Shown: piece by piece, positions 8,298 to 49,598 of the stretch
Position numbering within the stretch: the first letter of the stretch is position 1
Layout: each line of letters opens with the position of its first letter
DNA from: Minisyncoccota bacterium
GTDB lineage: Bacteria; Patescibacteriota; Minisyncoccia; Minisyncoccales; CG1-02-41-26
DNA length: 64,000 nt
Assembly: GCA_028718785.1 (NCBI GenBank)
Contig: JAQULB010000003.1
Span: 74,228-138,227, forward strand
Reading direction: 5' to 3'
Position numbers and translations under genes: made by a program
Notes under the pieces: generated by a model
What the model was told of the DNA's origin: nothing
Databases searched by the model: none
The model's input: the letters and a program-made list of their open reading frames with translations, nothing else

Positions 8298-8361
8298 AGT
8301 TAAACAATTAGATTTTAGCGGATTTTTGGGTATTTATCAACACCCGTTGATAAAATGATTG

Positions 8362-8370
8362 TGGTATAAT
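8362..8370 (+). promoter_or_regulatory. Possible extended -10 promoter (TGgTATAAT) feeding element copy 1 and the HK gene
   Basis: TGGTATAAT directly abuts the TAAGTAATCC start of the element. No well-spaced -35 is present. Confidence 0.3.
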
Positions 8371-8627
8371 AAGTAATCCGTTAATGAAAGCGAGCTTTTG
8401 AGCGAAGCTTGAATTTACGGATTACTTACCCCGTGAAGTAAGATTTGAGGATTTTTCAAAAAGTGTTTCGTTTTAAGTATTTAATTATTTTTTCTCTTGC
8501 GTAATATTGATAAATTTATTCTCAAATCTTAATTTTAAATTTACTAATTTAAAACTACTTCACAGGGTGTAAGAACTCGTAAATTCACTCGTGGCTAATC
8601 GCCGCTCACTCATTAACGATTTCTAAC
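8370..8627 (+). repeat. Stop-to-start intergenic hairpin-array element, copy 1 (H1+H2+H3)
   Basis: H1 is TAAGTAATCCGT...ACGGATTACTTA (8370-8428). H2 arms are CCCCGTGAAGTA (8429-8440) and TACTTCACAGGGTG (8557-8569). H3 is TAAGAACTCGTAAATTC...CATTAACGATTTCTAAC, ending at the ATG at 8628. Confidence 0.85.
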
Positions 8628-9560
8628 ATGCTAGACTCTCTCAACCCTGTTTCATCTTGTAAAAAATATGGCGTTTCTCTTTGGCAATGTCCGCAGTTTT
8701 TATTTTTGGTAATGGGTATTGTTATTATAATTGCCATTATAGTTACTTATTTTTTAACAACTCTTCGCGTTGGAGATCCATCAATTGTAAGTTTGCTGGT
8801 TTTGGGAGTGGGAGCTTTTTTGTTAATAATGAACTTTATTATCACAAACAGCTTTGAAAGAATGGCTGAGGCTTCAAAACTAAAAAGCGAATTTATCCAC
8901 ATTGTTTCCCATCAGTTAAGAGCGCCCTTAACAAATATAAAATTTTCTTTGGATTTTTTAAATTCAGCTAAAATGACTCAAACCAAAGAACAACAGCAAG
9001 AGTATTACGATATTTTAAAAGAGAATTCCGATAGAATGAATGATTTAATAGACAACCTTTTAACTGTGGCAAAAATTGAAAGTGGCTCTTTTCCTTTATC
9101 AAAGTCAGAGGTGTTTATAGAAAATATTGCCCAAAAACTTATCCAAAAATTCAAACCTTTTGCCACAGCTTCCAATATTAAGTTAATGATTTTTTCAGCA
9201 GACCACTCTTTAAAGGTTTTAGCGGATCCTTTATGGATTGAACAAGTAATGGAAAACCTTCTTGATAACGCTATAAAATATACGAAAGGAGGGGGTGAAG
9301 TGAGCGTAAAAGTTTACCAAAAAAAGAAAAAAGTTTTTTATGAAGTTCATGATAATGGGGTAGGTGTGCCAAAAAAAGACCAAAAGTTTGTTTTTCAAAA
9401 ATTTTTCCGTTCAAATAACAGTTTTAAAAAACAAACCGGAGGAACTGGATTGGGCTTGCATATTGCCAAAAGAATTGTGGAAAAAACAGGAGGAGAAGTA
9501 GGTTTTTTTTCAAAAGAAAATAGGGGTTCAACATTCTGGTTTAGTTTGCCAATTAAGTAA
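8628..9560 (+). CDS. Sensor histidine kinase
   Basis: Two TM segments are followed by a HisKA H-box (FIHIVSHQLRAPL) and HATPase_c motifs (DNAIKYT, DNGVGVP, GGTGLGLHIAK). Confidence 0.85.
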   Translation: MLDSLNPVSSCKKYGVSLWQCPQFLFLVMGIVIIIAIIVTYFLTTLRVGDPSIVSLLVLGVGAFLLIMNFIITNSFERMAEASKLKSEFIHIVSHQLRAPLTNIKFSLDFLNSAKMTQTKEQQQEYYDILKENSDRMNDLIDNLLTVAKIESGSFPLSKSEVFIENIAQKLIQKFKPFATASNIKLMIFSADHSLKVLADPLWIEQVMENLLDNAIKYTKGGGEVSVKVYQKKKKVFYEVHDNGVGVPKKDQKFVFQKFFRSNNSFKKQTGGTGLGLHIAKRIVEKTGGEVGFFSKENRGSTFWFSLPIK

Positions 9561-9816
9561 TCCGTTATTGAAAGCGAGCCGTCAACCCAGTAGGTCATTC
9601 TACTGAATGAGGCGAAGCTTGAAATTTACGGAGGACTTACCCCGTGGAGTATAAATTTGCTCTGCAAATTTATATTTTAAATTTTTTACTAAAAATTTAA
9701 AATTACTCCACAGGGTGTAAGAATTCGTAAATTCACTCGCCTAGTTAAATGTCCTTCGGGCAATTTCGCTGAAAGCGAAATTATTTAATCGGACTCATTC
9801 ATTAACGATTTCTAAC
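9554..9816 (+). repeat. Intergenic hairpin-array element, copy 2
   Basis: TTAAGTAATCCGTTATTGAAAGCGAGC overlaps the last HK codons and its stop. H2 arms are at 9640-9651 (CCCCGTGGAGTA) and 9704-9717 (TACTCCACAGGGTG). The element ends CATTAACGATTTCTAAC-ATG. Confidence 0.85.
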
Positions 9817-10194
9817 ATGAAAAAAATATTACTAATTGAAGATGAGGGAGCTTTGCAAAAAAGTTTAGGAGACACTTTCCGCGGAGCTGGTTTTGAGGTT
9901 TTGAGCGCTTTAGATGGTGAAGCAGGCGAAAGATTGGCAAAAAAAGAAAAGCCGGATTTGATTATTTTAGATTTAGTTTTGCCCCAAAAAGACGGGTTAG
10001 ATGTTTTTCAGGCATTAAAAGACGACCCAATAACAAAAGATATCCCAGTGGTTATTTTAACTAATCTTGAAAGAATAGAGCATGTGGAAAAAGTTTTAGA
10101 AATGGGCGCTAAAACATACTTGGTGAAATCAAACTATACCCTAAAAGAAATATTAGAAAAAGTTAACCAGGTCTTATCGAGTCAGAGCCAGTAG
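9817..10194 (+). CDS. Receiver-only response regulator (CheY-like)
   Basis: The sequence reads MKKILLIEDE...DLIILDLVLPQKDG...K, and there is no output domain. Confidence 0.85.
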   Translation: MKKILLIEDEGALQKSLGDTFRGAGFEVLSALDGEAGERLAKKEKPDLIILDLVLPQKDGLDVFQALKDDPITKDIPVVILTNLERIEHVEKVLEMGAKTYLVKSNYTLKEILEKVNQVLSSQSQ

Positions 10195-10429
10195 GCGATA
10201 GACGAGATTAGAGCTGGTTAACTCTGTGGAGTATTTTTAAATTTTTAGTAAAAAAATTTAAAACAGAAATTTTCTCTGAAAATTTCTACTCCACGGGGTG
10301 TAAGAATTCGTAAATTCATTTCATTCATTAACGACTTAAGGAATATCCCGATTAAACGCTTTATGAGAGAGCGTTTAACAGGATCTAAGAATTCGTAAAT
10401 TCATTTCATTCATTAACGACTTCTAAGAC
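10192..10429 (+). repeat. Intergenic hairpin-array element, copy 3 (variant H1, H3 duplicated)
   Basis: H2 arms are CTCTGTGGAGTA (10222-10233) and TACTCCACGGGGTG (10287-10300). TAAGAATTCGTAAATTCATTTCATTCATTAACGACTT occurs twice. The element ends CTTCTAAGAC-ATG. Confidence 0.8.
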
Positions 10430-12184
10430 ATGAAAGTTGAACCCCAACAATTAAAGGCCTTTATAGTAAGTTCTGGATTAGTTAACGAAAAGCAGTTTGA
10501 TAATTGTTTTAAAAAAGCGGAAAAATCCAAAGAAAGCGTTGAAGATGTTTTGATTGCTGACAAACTAATAACGCAAGCGGATTTAATTCGTTTAAAGGCC
10601 TATATTTTGGGCATTCCTTTTGTTAACTTAGAAAAAGATAAAATATTGGCTGATATTTTAAAAATTATTCCAGAGCCAATCGCCAGGACTCACAATATTG
10701 TGGCTTTTAGAAAGCAGGGCAAGAATTTGGAAGTGGCAATGCTTGATCCAGAAGATTTAAAAACAATAGAGTTTGTCAAAAAAAAGTCTGATTTAAAAAT
10801 ACTTCCCAGATTAACAAGTCCAGAAAGTATAAAAAGCGCTTTAAGCCAATATCAAGAAAGCTTGCAAGCTGAGTTTGGAGATATAATTAAGCAAGAAACA
10901 GGAGAAATAAAAAATATTCAAGACAGCGAGGGCGAAAATGAAGAAGCTGGGTCGGATTTGGAAAAGAAAGCTCAAGAAGTGCCAATAATTAAAATTGTTG
11001 ACACTTTATTAAAGCACGCCATTTTGCAAGGCGCTTCTGACATCCACATTGAACCAATGGAAAACGAGGTTTTGGTTAGATACAGAATAGACGGTATTTT
11101 GCATGATGCTATGACATTGCCAGTTATCGCCAAATCGGGAATTGTTGCTCGCATAAAAGTGTTAAGCAACTTAAAGCTTGATGAACACCGGCTTCCTCAA
11201 GATGGAAGGTTTAAAATTGAAACAAACGAATATAAATATTCGGTTAGGGTTTCGGTTTTGCCGGTTTTTAATGGTGAAAAAATAGTAATGCGACTTTTAC
11301 CCGAAACAACCAAAGGCCTTTCATTAGAACAGCTTGGCATAACCGGGGATGCATTAGAAAAAATTGAAGTAGCCCTAAATAGACCAGTTGGAATGGTTTT
11401 AGTTACAGGACCAACTGGCTCTGGTAAAACAACCACGCTTTATTCAATGATGGAGATATTAAACAAGCCGTTCGTTAATATTTCCACCGTGGAAGATCCA
11501 ATTGAATATAGAATGCCCAGAGTTAATCAAACGCAAGTAAATCCGCTTATTGGATTAACTTTTGCTTCAGGGCTTAGATCGTTATTGAGGCAAGACCCAA
11601 ATGTTATAATGGTTGGAGAAATTAGAGATAATGAAACCGCCAGTTTAGCTATCAACGCTTCCTTAACAGGGCATTTGGTGCTTTCTACTTTGCATACAAA
11701 TTCGGCCGCTGGGGCTATTCCTCGGCTTGTTGACATGAAAGTGGAACCATTTTTGTTGGCTTCAACTCTTAATGTGGTTATTGCTCAAAGATTAGTGAGG
11801 CGTTTAACAGAGGAAAAAGAAGAATATTATTTGCAGGATTCTGATTTAAAAAATCTTTCAAAATATTGCAACATAGAAACAATTAACAAGGTTTTAGAAG
11901 AAGAAAAAATATCAAAACCAGGTCAGTCAATCAAGGAAATTCCTTTTTATAAACCAAAAACAACAAAAGAAGCGCCAGACGGATATAAGGGCAGAGTGGG
12001 CATTTATGAAGTTTTAAATGTTGATGAGGCCATAAGATCGCTTTTACAAAAAGGATCATCGGCTGATGAAATACAAAACCAAGCGGTTTTATCTGGCATG
12101 AGACTAATGTTTGCTGATGGTTTTGCTAAAGCCGCTCGGGGGCAAACTAGCGTGGAAGAAATTTTAAGGGTGATAACAGAATAA
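10430..12184 (+). CDS. pilB: Type IV pilus assembly ATPase (GspE/PilB family), locus 1
   Basis: Walker A (GPTGSGKTTT), Asp and His boxes, and the RLPQDGRF motif are all present. Confidence 0.9.
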   Translation: MKVEPQQLKAFIVSSGLVNEKQFDNCFKKAEKSKESVEDVLIADKLITQADLIRLKAYILGIPFVNLEKDKILADILKIIPEPIARTHNIVAFRKQGKNLEVAMLDPEDLKTIEFVKKKSDLKILPRLTSPESIKSALSQYQESLQAEFGDIIKQETGEIKNIQDSEGENEEAGSDLEKKAQEVPIIKIVDTLLKHAILQGASDIHIEPMENEVLVRYRIDGILHDAMTLPVIAKSGIVARIKVLSNLKLDEHRLPQDGRFKIETNEYKYSVRVSVLPVFNGEKIVMRLLPETTKGLSLEQLGITGDALEKIEVALNRPVGMVLVTGPTGSGKTTTLYSMMEILNKPFVNISTVEDPIEYRMPRVNQTQVNPLIGLTFASGLRSLLRQDPNVIMVGEIRDNETASLAINASLTGHLVLSTLHTNSAAGAIPRLVDMKVEPFLLASTLNVVIAQRLVRRLTEEKEEYYLQDSDLKNLSKYCNIETINKVLEEEKISKPGQSIKEIPFYKPKTTKEAPDGYKGRVGIYEVLNVDEAIRSLLQKGSSADEIQNQAVLSGMRLMFADGFAKAARGQTSVEEILRVITE

Positions 12185-29636: not shown

Positions 29637-30692
29637 ATGGGTATATTTACAAAAAATTATTTAGGGGTTGATATTGGAGCCTCAAGCATAAAAGTTGTTG
29701 AGGTTTCGGTTTATGGTAAAAAGAAAAAACTGGAAAACTATATGGAATTTAAAATGCCTTTGTCTAGCCAGTCCCTTAAAACATTCCACAGAGAAAGCGC
29801 GGCCTTGTTGAGCAATGAGGTTTCGGAGATATTGCAGGCCATTTTAAGAAAAGCGAAAATTAAAGAAAAAAAAGTTTCTTTATCTTTGCCAGATTTTTCT
29901 ACTTTTTTTACAACATTCTCCATACCCCCAATGACAGAAACAGAAGTTCCTCAAGCCGTGGAATTTGAAGCAAAACATTACATCCCCTTGCCCTTAAACG
30001 AGGTTACTTTTGACTGGCAGATTATTGATAAAGAAGAAAGCATTTCAGGTTTGAAAAGAAGAATTTTGCTTGTGGCCATCCCCAACGCTGTTTTGCAAAA
30101 TTATCAAAGAGTGGCTTCGTTGTGCGGGCTTGAAATAGCGGGAATGGAAGCGGAAGTTTTTAGCTTGATAAGGTCTTCTTGGCCAGGCGGGAAATGCGAT
30201 TTTTTGCCTGTTTGCATGGTGGATTTTGGCTGGAAAAGCACAACTGTTAGCATTGTGGAAAAAAAGAAAGTGATATCAAGCTTTAGTTTTGATATTTCAA
30301 GCATTGCTTTAACAAAAGATTTGGCTTTGGCGTTGGGAATTCCGTTAGAAGAAGCAGAAAAATTAAAAACTCTTCATGGATTAGACCCTCAAAAACCAGA
30401 AGTTGCCAAAGTGCTTTTAGATAAAATTAACTTGCTTACAATGGAAATTGACAAAATTTGTGATGATTTTTTTCAAGCTACTAACCGAAGAGTGGACAAT
30501 CTTGTTTTGTCTGGGGGAACAGCCAATCTTTTTGGATTAAAAGAATATTTGTCTGCCAGAATTAAAAAAAGTGTATCAACAGCCATGCCTTTTTCCACCC
30601 TTAGTTATCCTGCGGTTTTAGAGCAAAGGTTGCTTAAGATTGGTCCTTCTTTTGCTATTGCTTTGGGGGCGGCTTTAATGTCAGCTGATTAA
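29637..30692 (+). CDS. pilM: PilM (actin-like), locus 2
   Basis: The 351-aa protein has a YLGVDIGASSIKVVEV start and a PilM-like layout, and is followed by pilN/O-like genes. Confidence 0.75.
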   Translation: MGIFTKNYLGVDIGASSIKVVEVSVYGKKKKLENYMEFKMPLSSQSLKTFHRESAALLSNEVSEILQAILRKAKIKEKKVSLSLPDFSTFFTTFSIPPMTETEVPQAVEFEAKHYIPLPLNEVTFDWQIIDKEESISGLKRRILLVAIPNAVLQNYQRVASLCGLEIAGMEAEVFSLIRSSWPGGKCDFLPVCMVDFGWKSTTVSIVEKKKVISSFSFDISSIALTKDLALALGIPLEEAEKLKTLHGLDPQKPEVAKVLLDKINLLTMEIDKICDDFFQATNRRVDNLVLSGGTANLFGLKEYLSARIKKSVSTAMPFSTLSYPAVLEQRLLKIGPSFAIALGAALMSAD

Positions 30693-31027
30693 ATGAGCGC
30701 CCAAGAGCGCGAGCCGTTAGGCGAAGCGTGATTGGTTGGGCGAATTTAACCCCGTGAAGTAAAATTTAATTTTACTAAATTAAATTTTAATCTTAAATTT
30801 TTATTTAAAAATTTAAGATTACTTCACAGGGGTGTGGATAGAAATATAAACAGACCCCAGTTAAGTAGCTCGCTCATCGCTCGCACTTAACGGGGTATAA
30901 GAATTCGTAAATTCATAAGGAAATCCCGATTAACGCTCGCTAAAATCACTCGCGTTAACGGGATGCAAGAACTTCTAAATTTCATAGCTCGCTAATCGCT
31001 CACTATTCAATTAAGAATTTCTAACAC
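30690..31027 (+). repeat. Intergenic hairpin-array element, copy 5 (longest, five hairpins)
   Basis: H1 is TAAATGAGCGCCCAA...TTGGGCGAATTTAA. H2 arms are at 30750-30761 and 30820-30834. Extra hairpins are CCCCAGTTAAGT...ACTTAACGGGG and ATCCCGATTAACGC...GCGTTAACGGGAT. The element ends AAGAATTTCTAACAC-ATG. Confidence 0.85.
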
Positions 31028-31582
31028 ATGTCAGATAAATTTGATGTTTTAAATATAATTCCAAAGCCCAAGATTGTTTTGCCTTTTTGGGTTAATCCTT
31101 TGGTTTTGGCTTCTGGAGTTATTTTGTTGATCATGACTGGGCTTTTTGTTTTTTATCATTTTCAAGCATTGTCATGGGAAAGTAAAGCAAAGGTTGAAGA
31201 AAGCAACTATCTTGCCCTTGCAACGCCAGAAAATAAAGCCATAGAGGAAAAAGCTGGAAAAATTTCCCAGCAGTTAGAAAAATTTTTTCAAGCGTTTGAA
31301 AACCATAAATTTTCTTATATTTTATTTAATTTTTTAAAGGATAATTGTCATCCCAATGTTAGTTTTTCAAGTTTAAATTTTAATTCAAACTCCGGAAAAG
31401 TTTCTTTGGCTGGTCAAACCAATAATTATAATAGTTTGGGTGAGCAGATAGCGGTTTTAAAAAGCGTAAAAGAAATAAGCGCTTTAGAGGTTTCAGATAT
31501 TGTTTTAGACAAAGAGGGGAATGTTACTTTTAGGTTAAATTTTATAGTTGACCCAAATTTTTTCAAAAATCAAAACCAATGA
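31028..31582 (+). CDS. pilN: PilN-like bitopic membrane protein, locus 2
   Basis: It has a single TM segment. The call rests mainly on synteny. Confidence 0.5.
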   Translation: MSDKFDVLNIIPKPKIVLPFWVNPLVLASGVILLIMTGLFVFYHFQALSWESKAKVEESNYLALATPENKAIEEKAGKISQQLEKFFQAFENHKFSYILFNFLKDNCHPNVSFSSLNFNSNSGKVSLAGQTNNYNSLGEQIAVLKSVKEISALEVSDIVLDKEGNVTFRLNFIVDPNFFKNQNQ

Positions 31583-35336: not shown

Positions 35337-36407
35337 ATGGAATACCAAAAAGTTTTAAAAAATATTTTGGAATCAGCAATTACCCAAGGGGCCTCGGATA
35401 TTCACATTGTGGTGGGGCATCCTTTTATTTTAAGAATTTCTGGCGAACTAATAAATCAACCCAAAACGCCCGTTGTTTCTCCAGAAGATGCTATGGGATT
35501 GGCGTTGGCTTTAATGGGCCAAGAAAGAAAAGACCGGCTTTTAAAAGAAAGAGAAATTGATTTTGCTTATAGTTTTTCCGATAAAGCCAGATTTAGAGTT
35601 AACATTTTTTTTCAAATGGGTTATGTGAGCATGGCTTTAAGGTTGATTAACTCTCAAATACGAACAACTGAAGAGCTTAATTTGCCTTTAACTATAAAAA
35701 ATTTTGCTCAAGCTGAACATGGGCTTGTTTTGATAACCGGATCTTCCTCTCAAGGAAAATCAACAACTTTAGCCAGCTTGGTTGATGATATTAACCACAA
35801 CAGAGGAGAGCATATTATAACAATTGAAGACCCAATAGAATATATTTTTAAAGATGACCTTTCTTTAATAGAACAAAGAGAGGTGTCTCAAGACACTTTA
35901 AGTTTTTCTAGCGCTTTAAGAGCGGCTTTGCGCGAAGATCCGGATGTTATTATGGTGGGGGAGATGAGGGACTTAGAAACAATTTCCACAACCATAACAG
36001 CGGCTGAAACCGGGCATTTGGTTTTTGCCACCTTGCATACAAATTCGGCTGCCCAAACAATTCACCGCATAATAGATGTTTTTCCTTCAGACCAGCAAGA
36101 TCAAGTGAGATCTCAGCTGGCAGTTTCTTTGCTGGGAGTTGTTTCTCAAAAACTCATACCGTCTGAGGAAAAAGGGTTTTTGCCAGCTTGCGAAGTTTTA
36201 ATTGCCACATCTGGCATAAGCAACTTAATAAGAGAAAACAAAATTCACGAGATACCTTCCATTATTGAAACTTCTGGACAAATGGGAATGTGCACTTTAA
36301 ATAAAAGCTTGGTTGAACTGGTTCGAGGAGGATTGATTTCCAAAGAATTGGCTATTGTTCACTCGCTTAACCCAGAAGATTTAAAGATTAGATTAAGCAG
36401 ATTATAA
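35337..36407 (+). CDS. pilT: PilT-family retraction ATPase
   Basis: The 356-aa protein has GASDIHI, Walker A (GSSSQGKST), GEMRD and a His box (TLHTNSAAQT). Confidence 0.85.
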   Translation: MEYQKVLKNILESAITQGASDIHIVVGHPFILRISGELINQPKTPVVSPEDAMGLALALMGQERKDRLLKEREIDFAYSFSDKARFRVNIFFQMGYVSMALRLINSQIRTTEELNLPLTIKNFAQAEHGLVLITGSSSQGKSTTLASLVDDINHNRGEHIITIEDPIEYIFKDDLSLIEQREVSQDTLSFSSALRAALREDPDVIMVGEMRDLETISTTITAAETGHLVFATLHTNSAAQTIHRIIDVFPSDQQDQVRSQLAVSLLGVVSQKLIPSEEKGFLPACEVLIATSGISNLIRENKIHEIPSIIETSGQMGMCTLNKSLVELVRGGLISKELAIVHSLNPEDLKIRLSRL

Positions 36408-36628
36408 GTAATCCGTTAATGAAAGCGAGCTTTTGAGCGAAGCTTGAATTTACGGATTACTTACCCCGTGGAGTATAAATTTGCTTTGCAAATTTATATT
36501 TTAAATTCTTATTAAAATCGTCTAATAATTTTAATAAGAATTTAAAATTACTCCACAGGGTGTAAGAACTCGTAAAATCCGCCGCAAATTTTACGAAATA
36601 AATTAGCGGCGAATTAACGATTTCTAAC
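36405..36628 (+). repeat. Intergenic hairpin-array element, copy 6
   Basis: The first 66 nt are identical to copy 1. H2 arms are at 36464-36475 and 36549-36562. H3 has interleaved stems CGTAAAAT/ATTTTACG and CGCCGC/GCGGCG. The element ends TTAACGATTTCTAAC-ATG. Confidence 0.85.
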
Positions 36629-37858
36629 ATGAGATTTTTTTATCAATCAAGGTCAAAAATTGGGGAGTTAAAAAAAGGTATTGTTGAGGCCGAGTCAAAA
36701 AAAGCGGCCCTGGAAGCTTTGGAAAAGTATGGTCTTTATGTTACCTCTTTAAAACAAGAACCCACCACAAAGCTTAAAAAGGATATAAACATTAAAATCC
36801 CTTTTTTAAAAGAGGTGCCCCAAAAAGAAATCGTGGCTTTCACAAGGCAGTTATCGGTAATGTTAAGGTCGGCAATTCCGCCCCTACAGGCCATAAAGGC
36901 CCAGGCCAGCCAAATAAAAAATCAAAGGTTTCAAGCAATTCTTTGGAAAATGGTTCAAAGCATAGAAATGGGAACACCCTTAAGCCAGGCCCTTGCTTTA
37001 TCTCCTCAAGTTTTTAATCAGTTTTTTATTAGTATGGTAAAGTCCGGAGAAGCGACTGGAAAAGTGGCTGACTCTTTGTTTTATTTAGCAGATCATTTAG
37101 AAGAAGAATATAATTTTAATCAAAAGGTTTTTGGGGCCATGATTTACCCCATTTTTATTTTGTTTGCTTTAACAGCAGCTTTCTTTTTGGCAATATTTTT
37201 TATTGTTCCCAAGTTAAGAGAAATTTTGGAATCTTTTACAGGCAATCTTCCTTGGGCCACAAAGTTAATTATTGGCTTGTCGGATTTTATAAAAGCCGGG
37301 GGCTGGATTGGTTTTTTGCTTGTTTTTGGGGCAATTGCCGCTTTGCCTGTAGTTTTAAAAAAGAATAAAGAAGCAAAAATCGCTTATGATTCGTTAATTT
37401 TAAAAGTGCCTGTTTTGGGAAAATTTTTTGCAAAGGTTTATCTTGTTAGATTCACCGAAAATTTGTCTGTTTTGATTTCTGCTGGCTTGCCAATTAATCA
37501 AGCATTAAACATTACTTATGATATTGTGGGCAACACAGTGTATCAAAAAATTATCAAAGAGATAAGCGATCGGGTGGCTAAAGGAGAAAAAATAAGCGCG
37601 GTGGTTTTTGAAAAGCCAAATCAAATTCCCCCCTTTGTTTCTCAAATGATTTCCACAGGAGAGGAAACTGGAAAGTTAGACGAAACTTTAATGGATGCGG
37701 TGAGGTTTTATCGCCAAGAAATAGAACGCACCACTGCTAATTTAACAACAATCATAGAGCCGGTCTTGATTTTAATTATTGGGGTGGCTATTGCGATTTT
37801 TGCGGTTTCAATTTTTATACCGCTTTTCAAAATAGGCATGGGCGGAATGACTGGATAA
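36629..37858 (+). CDS. pilC: Type IV pilus platform protein (GspF/PilC family), locus 2
   Basis: Duplicated GspF domains are present (SGEATGK, TGEETGKL), with three TM segments. Confidence 0.85.
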   Translation: MRFFYQSRSKIGELKKGIVEAESKKAALEALEKYGLYVTSLKQEPTTKLKKDINIKIPFLKEVPQKEIVAFTRQLSVMLRSAIPPLQAIKAQASQIKNQRFQAILWKMVQSIEMGTPLSQALALSPQVFNQFFISMVKSGEATGKVADSLFYLADHLEEEYNFNQKVFGAMIYPIFILFALTAAFFLAIFFIVPKLREILESFTGNLPWATKLIIGLSDFIKAGGWIGFLLVFGAIAALPVVLKKNKEAKIAYDSLILKVPVLGKFFAKVYLVRFTENLSVLISAGLPINQALNITYDIVGNTVYQKIIKEISDRVAKGEKISAVVFEKPNQIPPFVSQMISTGEETGKLDETLMDAVRFYRQEIERTTANLTTIIEPVLILIIGVAIAIFAVSIFIPLFKIGMGGMTG

Positions 37859-41642: not shown

Positions 41643-44867
<3,225 letters not shown>

Positions 44868-45742: not shown

Positions 45743-45907
45743 GAACTTTGTTAGAAGTAGCGTCTTAAAGAATGGTTGTCCACAGCTTAAGTCCCGGATT
45801 CTCCGAGGGAACACCATGGCATCCTCTAAGCTATTATTGCGTACTTCTAATAAGAAGTATAACACATAATTTTTAAAAGTAAAGTCAAGAGGATTTATCC
45901 ACAGAGG

Positions 45908-49100: not shown

Positions 49101-49396
49101 AGTTTGGAGGCCAGAGGTTTGGAGAAATGGAAGTTTGGGCCTTGGAATCGTATGGGGCGGCTCATACTTTGCAGGAAATGTTAACCATTAAATCTGACGA
49201 TGTGCCAGGCAGAGTTGCCACATACGAAACAATTTTAAAAGGAGAGGCGGTAAAAAAGCCAAATGTTCCAGCCAGTTTTAATCTTTTGGTTTCTGAGTTA
49301 AAATCGCTTGGTTTGAACATTGAAATAAAAGGCGTTTTTACAGACGAGGATGAAGAAGAAACATATAGCCATAGAGGAGACAAAAAAGAAGCATAA
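46175..49396 (+). CDS. rpoB: DNA-directed RNA polymerase beta subunit
   Basis: The 1073-aa protein carries conserved blocks (FGEMEVWALE, GRHGNKG, NMQRQAVP). Confidence 0.97.
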   Translation: MQTKSFSKSKLSFHLPYLLQMQKDSWNQLWEKELQELFEEMFPIRDYTGKQFELGFVSFKLEKPKYKSGDEAKENDDTFDASMRVRFSLKNLKTGEIKEQEVFLADFPLMTENGIFIINGVERVVIPQLIRSSGVFFTARPFRGKNYFGAKIIPTRGAWLEFDTDASGFLGVKINRQRKVAATTLLKALGLWERAKIEKEFASIDKGEIKYIEKTLSRDNTTSQEDSFVEIYKKIRPGDLVSPDAAKDLVLNMFCNFQRYDLSKVGRWKFWERLEENVEKKPRENIGKEERVLTLQDVILVIKEIIRLNNDPEAKPDQIDHLGNRRIRNLAELAAGRLRVGFMRMERIIKDRMSTLDAATITPSQIINPKPMMAVIQEFFSASQFSQFMDGENPLAELEHKRRLTATGPGGLTRERAGFEVRDVQPSHYGRICPIQTPEGQNVGLINHLASFAKVNTFGFLETPYFKVKNGRITDDTFYLTATQEEKCNITHAGVDFNEKGMMVEDEVEARKKGEPRKISKMEVDYIDVSSKQPLSVATSLIPFLQNDDANRALMGSNMQRQAVPLVMPQAPLVGTGTERNVAIDSGETIIAPESGVITEVDASQIKLKTKSETLTFNLRIFQRRNQYTATHQRPIVKKGDQVKKGDVLADGAAIDQGRLALGRNIFVAFLPFRGCNYEDAIVVSERLVRDDVFTSIHIEDFTCDVRDTKLGPELTTCDIPNVSEEKLKDLDEEGVVRVGAEVGPNDILVGKISPKGEKVLTAEERLLKAIFGEKAKEVKDTSMRMEHGKRGRIVKVKIFSRDKGDKLEPGVLKRIKVEVAQIRKVKVGDKLAGRHGNKGIVGRVIPVEEMPYMEDGTPVDIVLNPLGVVSRMNIGQILETHLGWAAHELNYLAITPSLLGATEKDIKEELVKAGLPESGQIKLYDGKTGQPFPTNITVGYMYMMKLIHMVEDKIHMRSIGPYSLITQQPLGGKAQFGGQRFGEMEVWALESYGAAHTLQEMLTIKSDDVPGRVATYETILKGEAVKKPNVPASFNLLVSELKSLGLNIEIKGVFTDEDEEETYSHRGDKKEA

Positions 49397-49598
49397 ATGA
49401 GTTGTTGGTGAAAGCGAGCTGTTAAGCGAAGCTTGAGCCTATAACGAATTTACCCTGTGAAGTAAATTTAAATTTTTAGCAAAAAATTTAAATTAGAAAT
49501 TTGCTTCACAAATTTCTACTTCACGGGGTGTAAGTATTCGTAAAATTTTTCCGCAAATTTTACGAACAAAATTAGCGGAAAAATTAACGACTACTAAC
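49394..49598 (+). repeat. Intergenic hairpin-array element, copy 9 (between rpoB and rpoC)
   Basis: H1 is TAAATGAGTTGTTGG...CCTATAACGAATTTA. H2 arms are CCCTGTGAAGTA (49453-49464) and TACTTCACGGGGTG (49517-49530). H3 has interleaved stems. The element ends TTAACGACTACTAAC-ATG. Confidence 0.85.

Follow-up and report, generated by a model that had tools for sequence, protein, structure and literature searches.

What lies immediately 5' of rpoC, at positions 49539-49598 of this 64,000 nt stretch of DNA from a Minisyncoccota bacterium (the window), and is it a regulatory structure that belongs to that gene? The first-pass annotation had read this interval, together with its counterparts 5' of pilC and rpsR, as two interleaved stems, S1 and S2, which would form either an H-type pseudoknot or two mutually exclusive hairpins beside the start codon. 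As modelled here, 49539-49598 is not a pseudoknot but the upper two thirds of a single imperfect hairpin, about 70 nt long (49529-49600). This hairpin, H3, is the third module of a multi-copy H1-H2-H3 element in a Pacebacteria/Gribaldobacteria-like genome of the Candidate Phyla Radiation (CPR). On balance, it is likely that H3 is a nested imperfect hairpin reaching the start codon, and that it is the last module of a high-copy, apparently mobile spacer element.

The complementary segments that had been reported are present. In copy 9, the copy 5' of rpoC, S1 is formed by CGTAAAAT (49539-49546) and ATTTTACG (49557-49564), and S2 by TTTTCCGC and GCGGAAAA, exactly where they had been placed. Copy 6, 5' of pilC, has the same S1 (36571-36578 and 36588-36595) with an S2 of CGCCGC and GCGGCG, and copy 10, on the minus strand 5' of rpsR, has GAGCTTG and CAAGCTC as S1 and GCGGT and ACCGC as S2. 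In all three the segments are in the interleaved order S1-5', S2-5', S1-3', S2-3'. The H3 hairpin has, in addition, two conserved arms that are nearly reverse complements, Block A (GTAAGNAYTCGTAAAT) and Block B (ATTAACGAYTWCTAAC). Block A contains the 5' arm of S1, while Block B is the 16-20 nt that had been placed after the end of the structure; it is not a gap before the ATG, being paired with Block A. The A:B pairing is made of segments of 4, 4, 4, and 3 bp, separated by three conserved mismatches (A.A, Y.Y, and A.A or AA/A), and the 4 bp base includes the A and U of the downstream ATG in most copies.

Between Blocks A and B there is an exchangeable insert. In copies 6 and 9 this consists of S2, stacked directly on the A:B helix, and an apical AATTT/AAATT stem, giving a coaxial helix of about 32 bp. 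The apical stem, AATTT(T)/(A)AAATT, is a rival of S1 that was absent from the earlier description; in copy 9 the 3' arm of S1 overlaps the 5' strand and the loop of this stem-loop (S3). The helices of copy 9 are a 4 bp base, 4 bp, 4 bp, 11 bp (AAU and S2), and a 6 bp apical stem, with small conserved mismatches between them, and the fold is unchanged when the whole spacer is folded. The same architecture is predicted by RNAfold in five window copies with three insert classes. There is a general trap here: stems that seem to interleave become a plain hairpin once the conserved inverted repeat flanking them is taken into account.

Covariation supports the nested pairing. For A:B, 39 distinct Block A and Block B pairs were taken from Gribaldobacteria-like metagenome-assembled genomes (MAGs), with a fixed linker keeping the columns in register. 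Of the cells, 94% are paired, as against 26-46% when the blocks are slid, compensatory changes are found in 6 of 15 pairs (40 cells), and the covariation score was reached by 0 of 500 shuffles. The closing pair is of three Watson-Crick types (GC in 24, AU in 6, and CG in 4), the TCGT/ACGA segment has the alternatives TTCT/AGAA, TTGT/ACAA, and TATT/AATA (the last of these from the full catalogue), and AAGA/TCTT has the alternative AAGT/ACTT.

Within the insert, the claimed compensatory change in S2 is real, with 4 of 7 pairs altered on both sides among 12 related copies of the insert class of copies 6 and 9 (here called H3-class copies) and 92.9% of cells paired. The extension above S2 is compensatory in 2 of 6 pairs. 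RNAalifold, given these copies in an unmodified alignment, arrives at the nested hairpin as consensus, with compensatory change in 6 of its 27 pairs. No compensatory change is seen in S1, where there are nine invariant pairs and one ambiguous pair (UA in 4 copies, CG in 3, and unpaired in 5). As the S1 pairs are invariant, covariation cannot test S1, and conservation of its 5' arm is uninformative, given that all H3-class copies were fetched with Block A fixed. Scanning metagenomes for the Block A variant that copies 6 and 9 carry added nine copies. A set of 11 orthologous or neighbouring loci, mined for the H3 class, yielded no others, and a scan of viral contigs anchored on the loop and Block B, with Block A unfixed, gave one chance match in a coding region. 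The three copies that had been described as different sequences sharing one topology come down to copies 6 and 9, which share an insert class and an identical S1, and a singleton, copy 10. The argument for selection on structure is thus upheld in part, being supported by the covariation of S2 and of A:B, for a nested hairpin that differs from the structure proposed.

The energetics are in agreement with the nested hairpin, which is the minimum free energy (MFE) structure (RNAfold) in all 13 copies of the class, at -20.4 to -40.1 kcal/mol; folds in which S1 is forced reach -10.4 to -21.5 kcal/mol. The energy of the pseudoknot, S1 and S2 with or without the outer A:B pairs, is a stack-by-stack hand estimate with Dirks-Pierce-type penalties of 9.6 or 15 kcal/mol, not the output of a pseudoknot program, and on this estimate the nested fold is favoured by 5.0-14.4 kcal/mol in each of the copies (12.1 in copy 9 and 9.3 in copy 6). 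That the two pairings exclude one another is correct, to the extent that S1 competes with the inner part of A:B and with the apical stem: the competing partners of Block A (TCGTAAAAT) are the loop ATTTTACGA, which gives S1, and Block B, which gives the nested hairpin. At equilibrium, though, the probability of S1 in the nested ensemble is 1e-9 to 1e-13. Only while the nascent RNA is no longer than about 52 nt is S1 the MFE structure (-6.4 to -11.4 kcal/mol), and the findpath barrier from S1 to the nested fold is 7-17 kcal/mol. S1, in which Block A pairs with the apical loop instead, is thermodynamically minor beside the inner A:B and apical pairing that it competes with.

Nor is S1 a family-wide feature. 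Complementarity of the S1 type between Block A and the insert is modestly above that of shuffled inserts in copy 9 (z=-2.2, 11 of 300 shuffles as good), copy 6 (z=-2.2, 7 of 300), and copy 10 (z=-3.5, 2 of 300), and across the family it is above shuffles in copy 10 and the 13 H3-class copies alone (z -1.8 to -3.5). Among the remaining long-insert copies, about 37 in number, the z values run from -1.9 to +1.7, and the commonest insert class is depleted. The S1 of copy 10 is absent from relatives sharing its Block A variant and from the rpsR orthologues.

It is extremely unlikely that the native fold is an H-type pseudoknot of S1 and S2, 16-20 nt 5' of the ATG, serving as a translational operator. 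The interleaved complementarity is real, S2 covaries, and S1 is intact in 13 of 13 copies of the class; the loop lengths would be roughly feasible (L1 of 1-2 nt over 6-8 bp, L2 of 0-2 nt, and L3 of 6-10 nt over 9-10 bp), borderline but not impossible. Such a fold would, however, need the inner half of A:B, the best-supported pairing of the whole family, to be broken at the estimated energetic cost in all 13 copies, for the sake of a stem with no compensatory change that is missing from most long-insert copies and is not conserved at the orthologous rpoC and pilC sites.

The role that was implied for rpoC, pilC, and rpsR individually does not survive comparison with close relatives, whose orthologous sites have other inserts or no element. 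The H3 insert is not gene-specific, and the element is present, absent, or differently filled at the same site. Between rpoB and rpoC the element is found in the window and in the related stretch L058. Where the N-terminus of RpoC has 96% amino acid identity (L059), there is another insert class and no H1; at 85% identity (L060) there is an 11 nt spacer without an element, and at 66-68% identity there are spacers of 26-43 nt. Between pilT and pilC, the relative with 92% identity in PilC (L064) has an A:B hairpin with the minimal 10 nt loop, while two with 78% identity (L068 and L069) have an ATGA overlap or an 8 nt spacer and no element. In two independent assemblies with 86% PilC identity this spacer is given as a run of N (L066, about 9095-9204; L067, about 9224-9433), which makes the site unreadable there. 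The pilM-pilN junction behaves in the same way as pilT-pilC. Filled and empty sites thus both occur at orthologous rpoB-rpoC and pilT-pilC junctions. The empty orthologous junctions are ATGA overlaps or spacers of 2-11 nt, and some of the stop codons there are TAG or TGA.

Blocks A and B, considered as DNA, are imperfect inverted repeats of about 17 nt around a short non-coding core, in many dispersed copies. In the window the Block A pattern is matched 9 times, where 0.02 would be expected, and the Block B pattern 6 times, where 0.31 would be expected. At least 10 copies of the element are present in the 64 kb, with dozens in each related MAG. A pattern scan covering one genome per species found it in 46 stretches from Candidatus Gribaldobacteria and from Patescibacteria MAGs that are unclassified or labelled 'Saccharibacteria'; three further hits were chance matches in unrelated taxa. 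In 55 of the 56 family matches an ATG follows within 10 nt of Block B, although the pattern does not demand an ATG.

By direct-repeat analysis, the three modules H1, H2, and H3 are found in at least 10 intergenic regions of the window. The element fills the intercistronic spacer from stop codon to start codon with three abutting structures and no unpaired linkers, and whole-spacer folds reach -77 and -88 kcal/mol (the latter in the copy 6 spacer), with z of about -11.5. The borders of the element are the coding borders, as at 49394-49601, 36405-36631, 30690-31030, and 60668-60862 (minus strand): H1 begins with three pairs made by the TAA stop, and H3 finishes with those made by the A and U of the ATG. 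The genes 3' of the window copies encode a histidine kinase, a response regulator, PilB, two PilC paralogues, a GspL-like protein, SSB, S18, and RpoC, and copies are intercistronic in the rpoB-rpoC, rpsF-ssb-rpsR, and pil operons. The H3 insert class occurs 5' of rpoC (twice), pilC, and rpsR, and also 5' of rplT-, rpsP-, murG-, and nusB-like genes, as identified by N-terminal peptides. No element has an Rfam match at the gathering threshold, and at E<=10 there are only sub-threshold matches resembling miRNA hairpins. The insert of copy 10 is of a different class from that of copies 6 and 9, being tca-stem-loop-stem-tca here and ending in -ttca in most relatives. The features of copy 9, with the other copies that were resolved, are given in Table 1.

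Table 1. Modules and hairpins of the repeat element in the window, with RNAfold energies where calculated
Feature	Position	Strand	Remarks
H1 of copy 9 spacer	49394..49452	+	Helix opens with rpoB stop TAA; core GAAAGCGAGC-loop-GCGAAGCTTGA, tandem G.A mismatches
H2 of copy 9 spacer	49453..49528	+	Y-shaped junction, base ACCCTGTGAAGTA / TACTTCACGGGG, two A/T-rich hairpins
Copy 9, complete H3 hairpin, 5' of rpoC	49529..49600	+	MFE -26.6 kcal/mol, z=-7.8, 0/200 shuffles as good
Copy 9, Block A GTAAGTATTCGTAAAAT	49530..49546	+	Last 8 nt (49539-49546) are the S1 5' arm; covaries with Block B
Copy 9, S2 5' arm TTTTCCGC	49547..49554	+	Extends A:B helix without linker
Copy 9, apical stem-loop S3	49556..49573	+	AATTTT 49556-49561, loop ACGAAC 49562-49567, AAAATT 49568-49573
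Copy 9, S2 3' arm GCGGAAAA	49575..49582	+	Compensatory S2 changes
Copy 9, Block B ATTAACGACTACTAAC	49583..49598	+	Pairs with Block A; ATG 49599-49601 directly after
Copy 6 hairpin, 5' of pilC	36560..36630	+	MFE -24.6 kcal/mol, z=-5.4
Copy 6, parts			Block A 36562-36578; S2 36580-36585 / 36606-36611; apical AATTT 36587-36591 / AAATT 36600-36604; Block B 36613-36628; ATG 36629
Copy 10 hairpin, 5' of rpsR	60669..60732	-	Nested MFE (A:B and S2) -16.6 kcal/mol, z=-2.1; downstream open reading frame Ribosomal_S18
Copy 10, parts			Block A 60730-60714; S2 GCGGT 60711-60707 / ACCGC 60695-60691; Block B 60688-60671; ATG 60670-60668
A:B hairpin, commonest insert class cactcGTGGCtaatcGCCGCtcactc, 5' of histidine kinase	8567..8629	+	-17.6 kcal/mol, z=-3.8
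Copy with 67 nt branched insert, 5' of response regulator	9715..9818	+	
Copy with minimal 10 nt loop catttcattc, 5' of pilB	10383..10431	+	Second A..B unit before it, 10300-10343
Copy with Block A/B variant TTCT/AGAA	30963..31029	+	Compensatory relative to TCGT/ACGA
Minimal-loop copy, 5' of ssb	61377..61424	-	-7.5 kcal/mol

Several features of the other modules were noted. The H1 core, TGAAAGCGAGC-loop-GCGAAGCTTGA, recurs at 49409-49436, 36419-36446, 8384-8411, and 41653-41680; it is a short helix that, in the manner of a k-turn or loop E, is interrupted where G.A/A.G mismatches lie in tandem, and it could be a protein-binding site. A second H1 variant is seen, for example, at 60862-60800 on the minus strand and at 8485-8550 of L064. 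Tandem or nested repeats are present at 10300-10432, where two A..B units have a short H2-like hairpin between them, and at 30893-31030, where a truncated Block A is followed by another H2-like hairpin and then by a full A..B unit. To judge from their sequences, these arrangements suggest module duplication or recombination.

What might such an element do? The H1-H2-H3 element would be a repeat that moves or recombines and is transcribed as part of operons, and the H3 hairpin would occlude the start region in a genome mostly without Shine-Dalgarno (SD) motifs. A loose SD-like 4-mer is found upstream of only 9 of the 54 open reading frames in the window, so that the genome is largely SD-less; the regions upstream of most window genes are A/T-rich and G-poor. 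The insert would set the stability of H3, from about -5 kcal/mol in minimal copies to about -40 kcal/mol in the H3 class, and since hairpin stability varies with the insert, it would therefore set the accessibility of an SD-less start. Translation of the downstream cistron could be tuned or gated in this way, or the hairpin could provide a double-strand processing site.

Several observations weigh against the nested hairpin as the whole account, the first of which concern S1. It is perfect in 12 of 12 copies, and in L032 it is formed with G.U pairs. The loop sequence UACGA is invariant in the 12 copies while three neighbouring loop bases vary freely. A class-specific extra A in Block A makes S1 perfect, at the price of a 2x1 loop in A:B, and in a scan with the insert unfixed this A accompanies the H3 insert class in 4 of 4 cases and 0 of 52 other family matches. 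The pseudoknot energies, moreover, are hand-estimated, and when Block B is removed the pseudoknot estimate comes to within 0-5.6 kcal/mol of the hairpin of S2 and S3 (0.2 in copy 9 and 4.0 in copy 6), so that a pseudoknot conditional on Block B being unavailable is conceivable. These sequence patterns point to some constraint acting on the 3' arm of S1, which could be pairing, a protein site mimicking Block B (UAACGA), or the trace of a recent inverted duplication.

We think it quite unlikely that S1 is a functional alternative pairing, a switch or latch that forms first in transcription, or whenever a ribosome or protein holds Block B open, and that then keeps Block A off Block B. The start region would in this way remain accessible, and the very stable apical extension of the insert class would be offset. 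The stability of S1 in the nascent RNA, the small gap that remains without Block B, the invariant UACGA, and the link between the extra A and the insert class are all as a latch would have them. Set against this, the refolding barrier is low and the equilibrium strongly favours the nested fold, S1 does not covary, and the conservation of its 5' arm follows from the way in which copies were retrieved. The loop segment could as well have arisen by recent inverted duplication of Block A, or could mimic Block B and be bound by the same factor, and most members of the family have no such alternative pairing.

A second group of observations concerns the strand on which the structure matters. For 69 of the 71 copies in the window and L001-L058, the antisense strand has the more stable fold, by about 4 kcal/mol on average, an advantage that comes from U.U replacing the A.A mismatches and, in the insert flanks, from tandem G.A pairs. 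The A:B helix itself has 10 A.C cells and 2 G.U cells. The sense versus antisense test for selection at the RNA level thus came out opposite to expectation, and together with the excess of A.C over G.U this makes a role of the inverted repeats at the DNA level a serious rival. It would hold that Blocks A and B are the terminal inverted repeats (TIRs), or single-stranded DNA hairpins, of an element resembling a miniature inverted-repeat transposable element (MITE) or a repetitive extragenic palindromic (REP) sequence, with RNA structure a by-product; this is possible, though we consider it unlikely. The presence or absence of the element and the swapping of inserts at orthologous junctions fit such an origin, as do the many identical 60 nt copies that follow different H2 modules within one MAG. 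The whole element has a TAA motif at either end, although the diverged empty sites yielded no exact duplication. No transposase was identified, and no search aimed at transposases was made. It would not be predicted for a TIR recognised by a transposase that the arms should carry copy-specific compensatory changes, or that three mismatches should be conserved and not corrected, and the orientation of the element always follows the downstream gene, with its 3' end abutting the ATG.

One copy also bears on transcription. Just 5' of one H1 a likely extended -10 promoter, TGGTATAAT, can be read from the sequence at about 8358-8366, and the copy behind it is probably transcribed as a 5' untranslated region (UTR), with no upstream cistron, which does not sit easily with a purely DNA-level role. 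Another sequence, GTAAGAAC, was rejected as a promoter element, the T at -7 being missing. That the element is a sigma-70 promoter and terminator cassette was likewise rejected. The rpoB-rpoC spacer (49350-49650) has 0 sigma-70 promoter-like and 0 intrinsic terminator-like sites, and the counts in 8300-10450 are not above those of shuffles. Canonical TTGACA/TATAAT promoters do occur in the window, for example at about 5400, 45900, and 53370.

The last of the points against the nested hairpin is the gene beside which it was found. It would be hard to explain how rpoC, an essential gene, is expressed beneath a start-codon hairpin of -25 to -40 kcal/mol that is neither opened nor cut, and the folding model suggests that in vivo one or the other takes place. 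By analogy, RNase III processing as in the Correia elements of Neisseria is a plausible route for opening H3. On this model H3 would be an RNase III-type processing site at which polycistronic mRNA is cut just 5' of the ATG, freeing a short, unstructured, SD-less leader. We give this model little credence. The helices, of about two turns or more and about 32 bp in the H3 class, and their intercistronic position in three sets of operons would suit the enzyme, and Correia elements, which RNase III can bind and cleave (PMC2649163), provide a precedent. The minimal copies, though, have only -4.6 to -7.5 kcal/mol with three mismatches, and the copy in the 5' UTR has no upstream cistron from which to be separated.

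It is very unlikely, but conceivable, that the copies are selfish insertions into tightly coupled stop/start junctions of operons in an SD-poor CPR lineage, and that they are kept since the whole 200-340 nt spacer folds into abutting helices, with the stop codon in the first and the start codon in the last, so that the two codons are joined and ribosomes pass. This would amount to structure-mediated termination-reinitiation or shunting between cistrons, with the S1 latch keeping the start of the H3 class open.

With the nested hairpin as the preferred reading, no new class of translational operator is to be claimed, as the pseudoknot does not hold up. Instead there emerges a repeat family not described before, which is modular, present in high copy, and strongly covarying, has no Rfam match, and lies in core operons of small-genome CPR bacteria; in close relatives, the genes at the junctions that the element fills overlap or nearly abut. 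No description of such repeats was found in the Gribaldobacteria and Patescibacteria literature, by searches that were not aimed at the sequence of this family and that brought up papers on taxonomy and on TIGR-Tas arrays only. If it is transcribed and structured as predicted, the family would be a natural system for the study of SD-less initiation beside stable structure, and of the tolerance of operons for invasion by repeats.

Three other features of the window may be recorded. A full-length match to the DUF3800-V RNA (RF02964) is present at 45753-45848 on the minus strand (74.5 bits, gathering threshold 37.4), between a 231 amino acid open reading frame and the rpoB promoter region. At 53497-53594 on the plus strand there is a tRNA-like gene of about 94 nt, called neither by ARAGORN nor by Rfam at gathering, with an acceptor GCGGAGG/CCTCCGC followed by A-CCA, a T-arm GTGG-TTCGACT-CCAC, and a terminator-like hairpin after it. 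Its best Rfam match is tRNA-Sec, at 41.3 bits, below the gathering threshold of 47 (E=3e-7), and it may be a selenocysteine or other long-arm tRNA in a CPR genome. Tandem repeats of the hexamer AAAATC form two blocks about 200 nt apart at 43318-43574, near the 3' end of the open reading frame for NAD-dependent DNA ligase (41746-43779).

How does the element compare with systems that are already known? Some candidates can be set aside. TIGR-Tas arrays are tandem and not comparable. Others were judged from general knowledge: integron attC sites have an R-box order that does not fit, and the neighbours here are core genes; Block B resembles the boxA/NusB site UGCUCUUUAACAA, but changes in its core are compensated in Block A; the likeness to T7-like promoters is superficial; and cleavage at ACA by a MazF-type enzyme to give leaderless mRNA does not agree with a spacing to the ATG that varies from 0 to 10 nt.

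The start-proximal pseudoknot operators of Escherichia coli rpsO (S15) and the alpha operon (S4), and of T4 gene 32, are single-copy, gene-specific, and conserved with the gene, and in rpsO hairpins and pseudoknot are in equilibrium. The H3-class copies share with them two interleaved helices near the initiation codon. They differ in that the insert here is swappable, lies 5' of unrelated genes, is absent at orthologous sites, and favours a nested fold. RNA thermometers such as ROSE and fourU, as generally known, are also imperfect helices with conserved non-canonical pairs that sequester the initiation region, and their stability sets its accessibility. Here, however, there is no pairing of SD with anti-SD, and the motif is multi-copy and modular; a temperature response is not expected, given the groundwater sources of the relatives.

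Closer comparisons are with the dispersed repeats. REP sequences and bacterial interspersed mosaic elements (BIMEs) of enterobacteria, and the BOX elements of Streptococcus pneumoniae, are modular imperfect palindromes that are transcribed with the operon. The REP/BIME palindromes carry a conserved 5' tetranucleotide (GTAG-like) and are linked to the gene of a REP-associated tyrosine transposase (RAYT, or TnpA-REP). Like these, the present element is a mosaic of imperfect palindromes, high-copy, extragenic, and often intercistronic. There is no sequence similarity, as judged from general knowledge and not against the sequences themselves, and REP, BIME, and BOX elements neither span exactly from stop to start codon nor put the start codon in a helix.

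The Correia elements of Neisseria (Correia repeat enclosed elements, CREE, or NEMIS) are bound or cleaved by RNase III, carry promoters, and can alter the expression of adjacent genes (PMC2649163). They resemble the present element in being short, multi-copy, and intergenic, with inverted-repeat ends that fold when transcribed, in lying adjacent to genes, and in being polymorphic between strains. No TA target duplication, integration host factor (IHF) site, or promoter was found here. Unlike the Correia elements, this one is in a CPR host, its arms have copy-specific compensatory changes and three conserved mismatches, and its hairpin is one of three modules, always ending at the start codon in the orientation of the gene.

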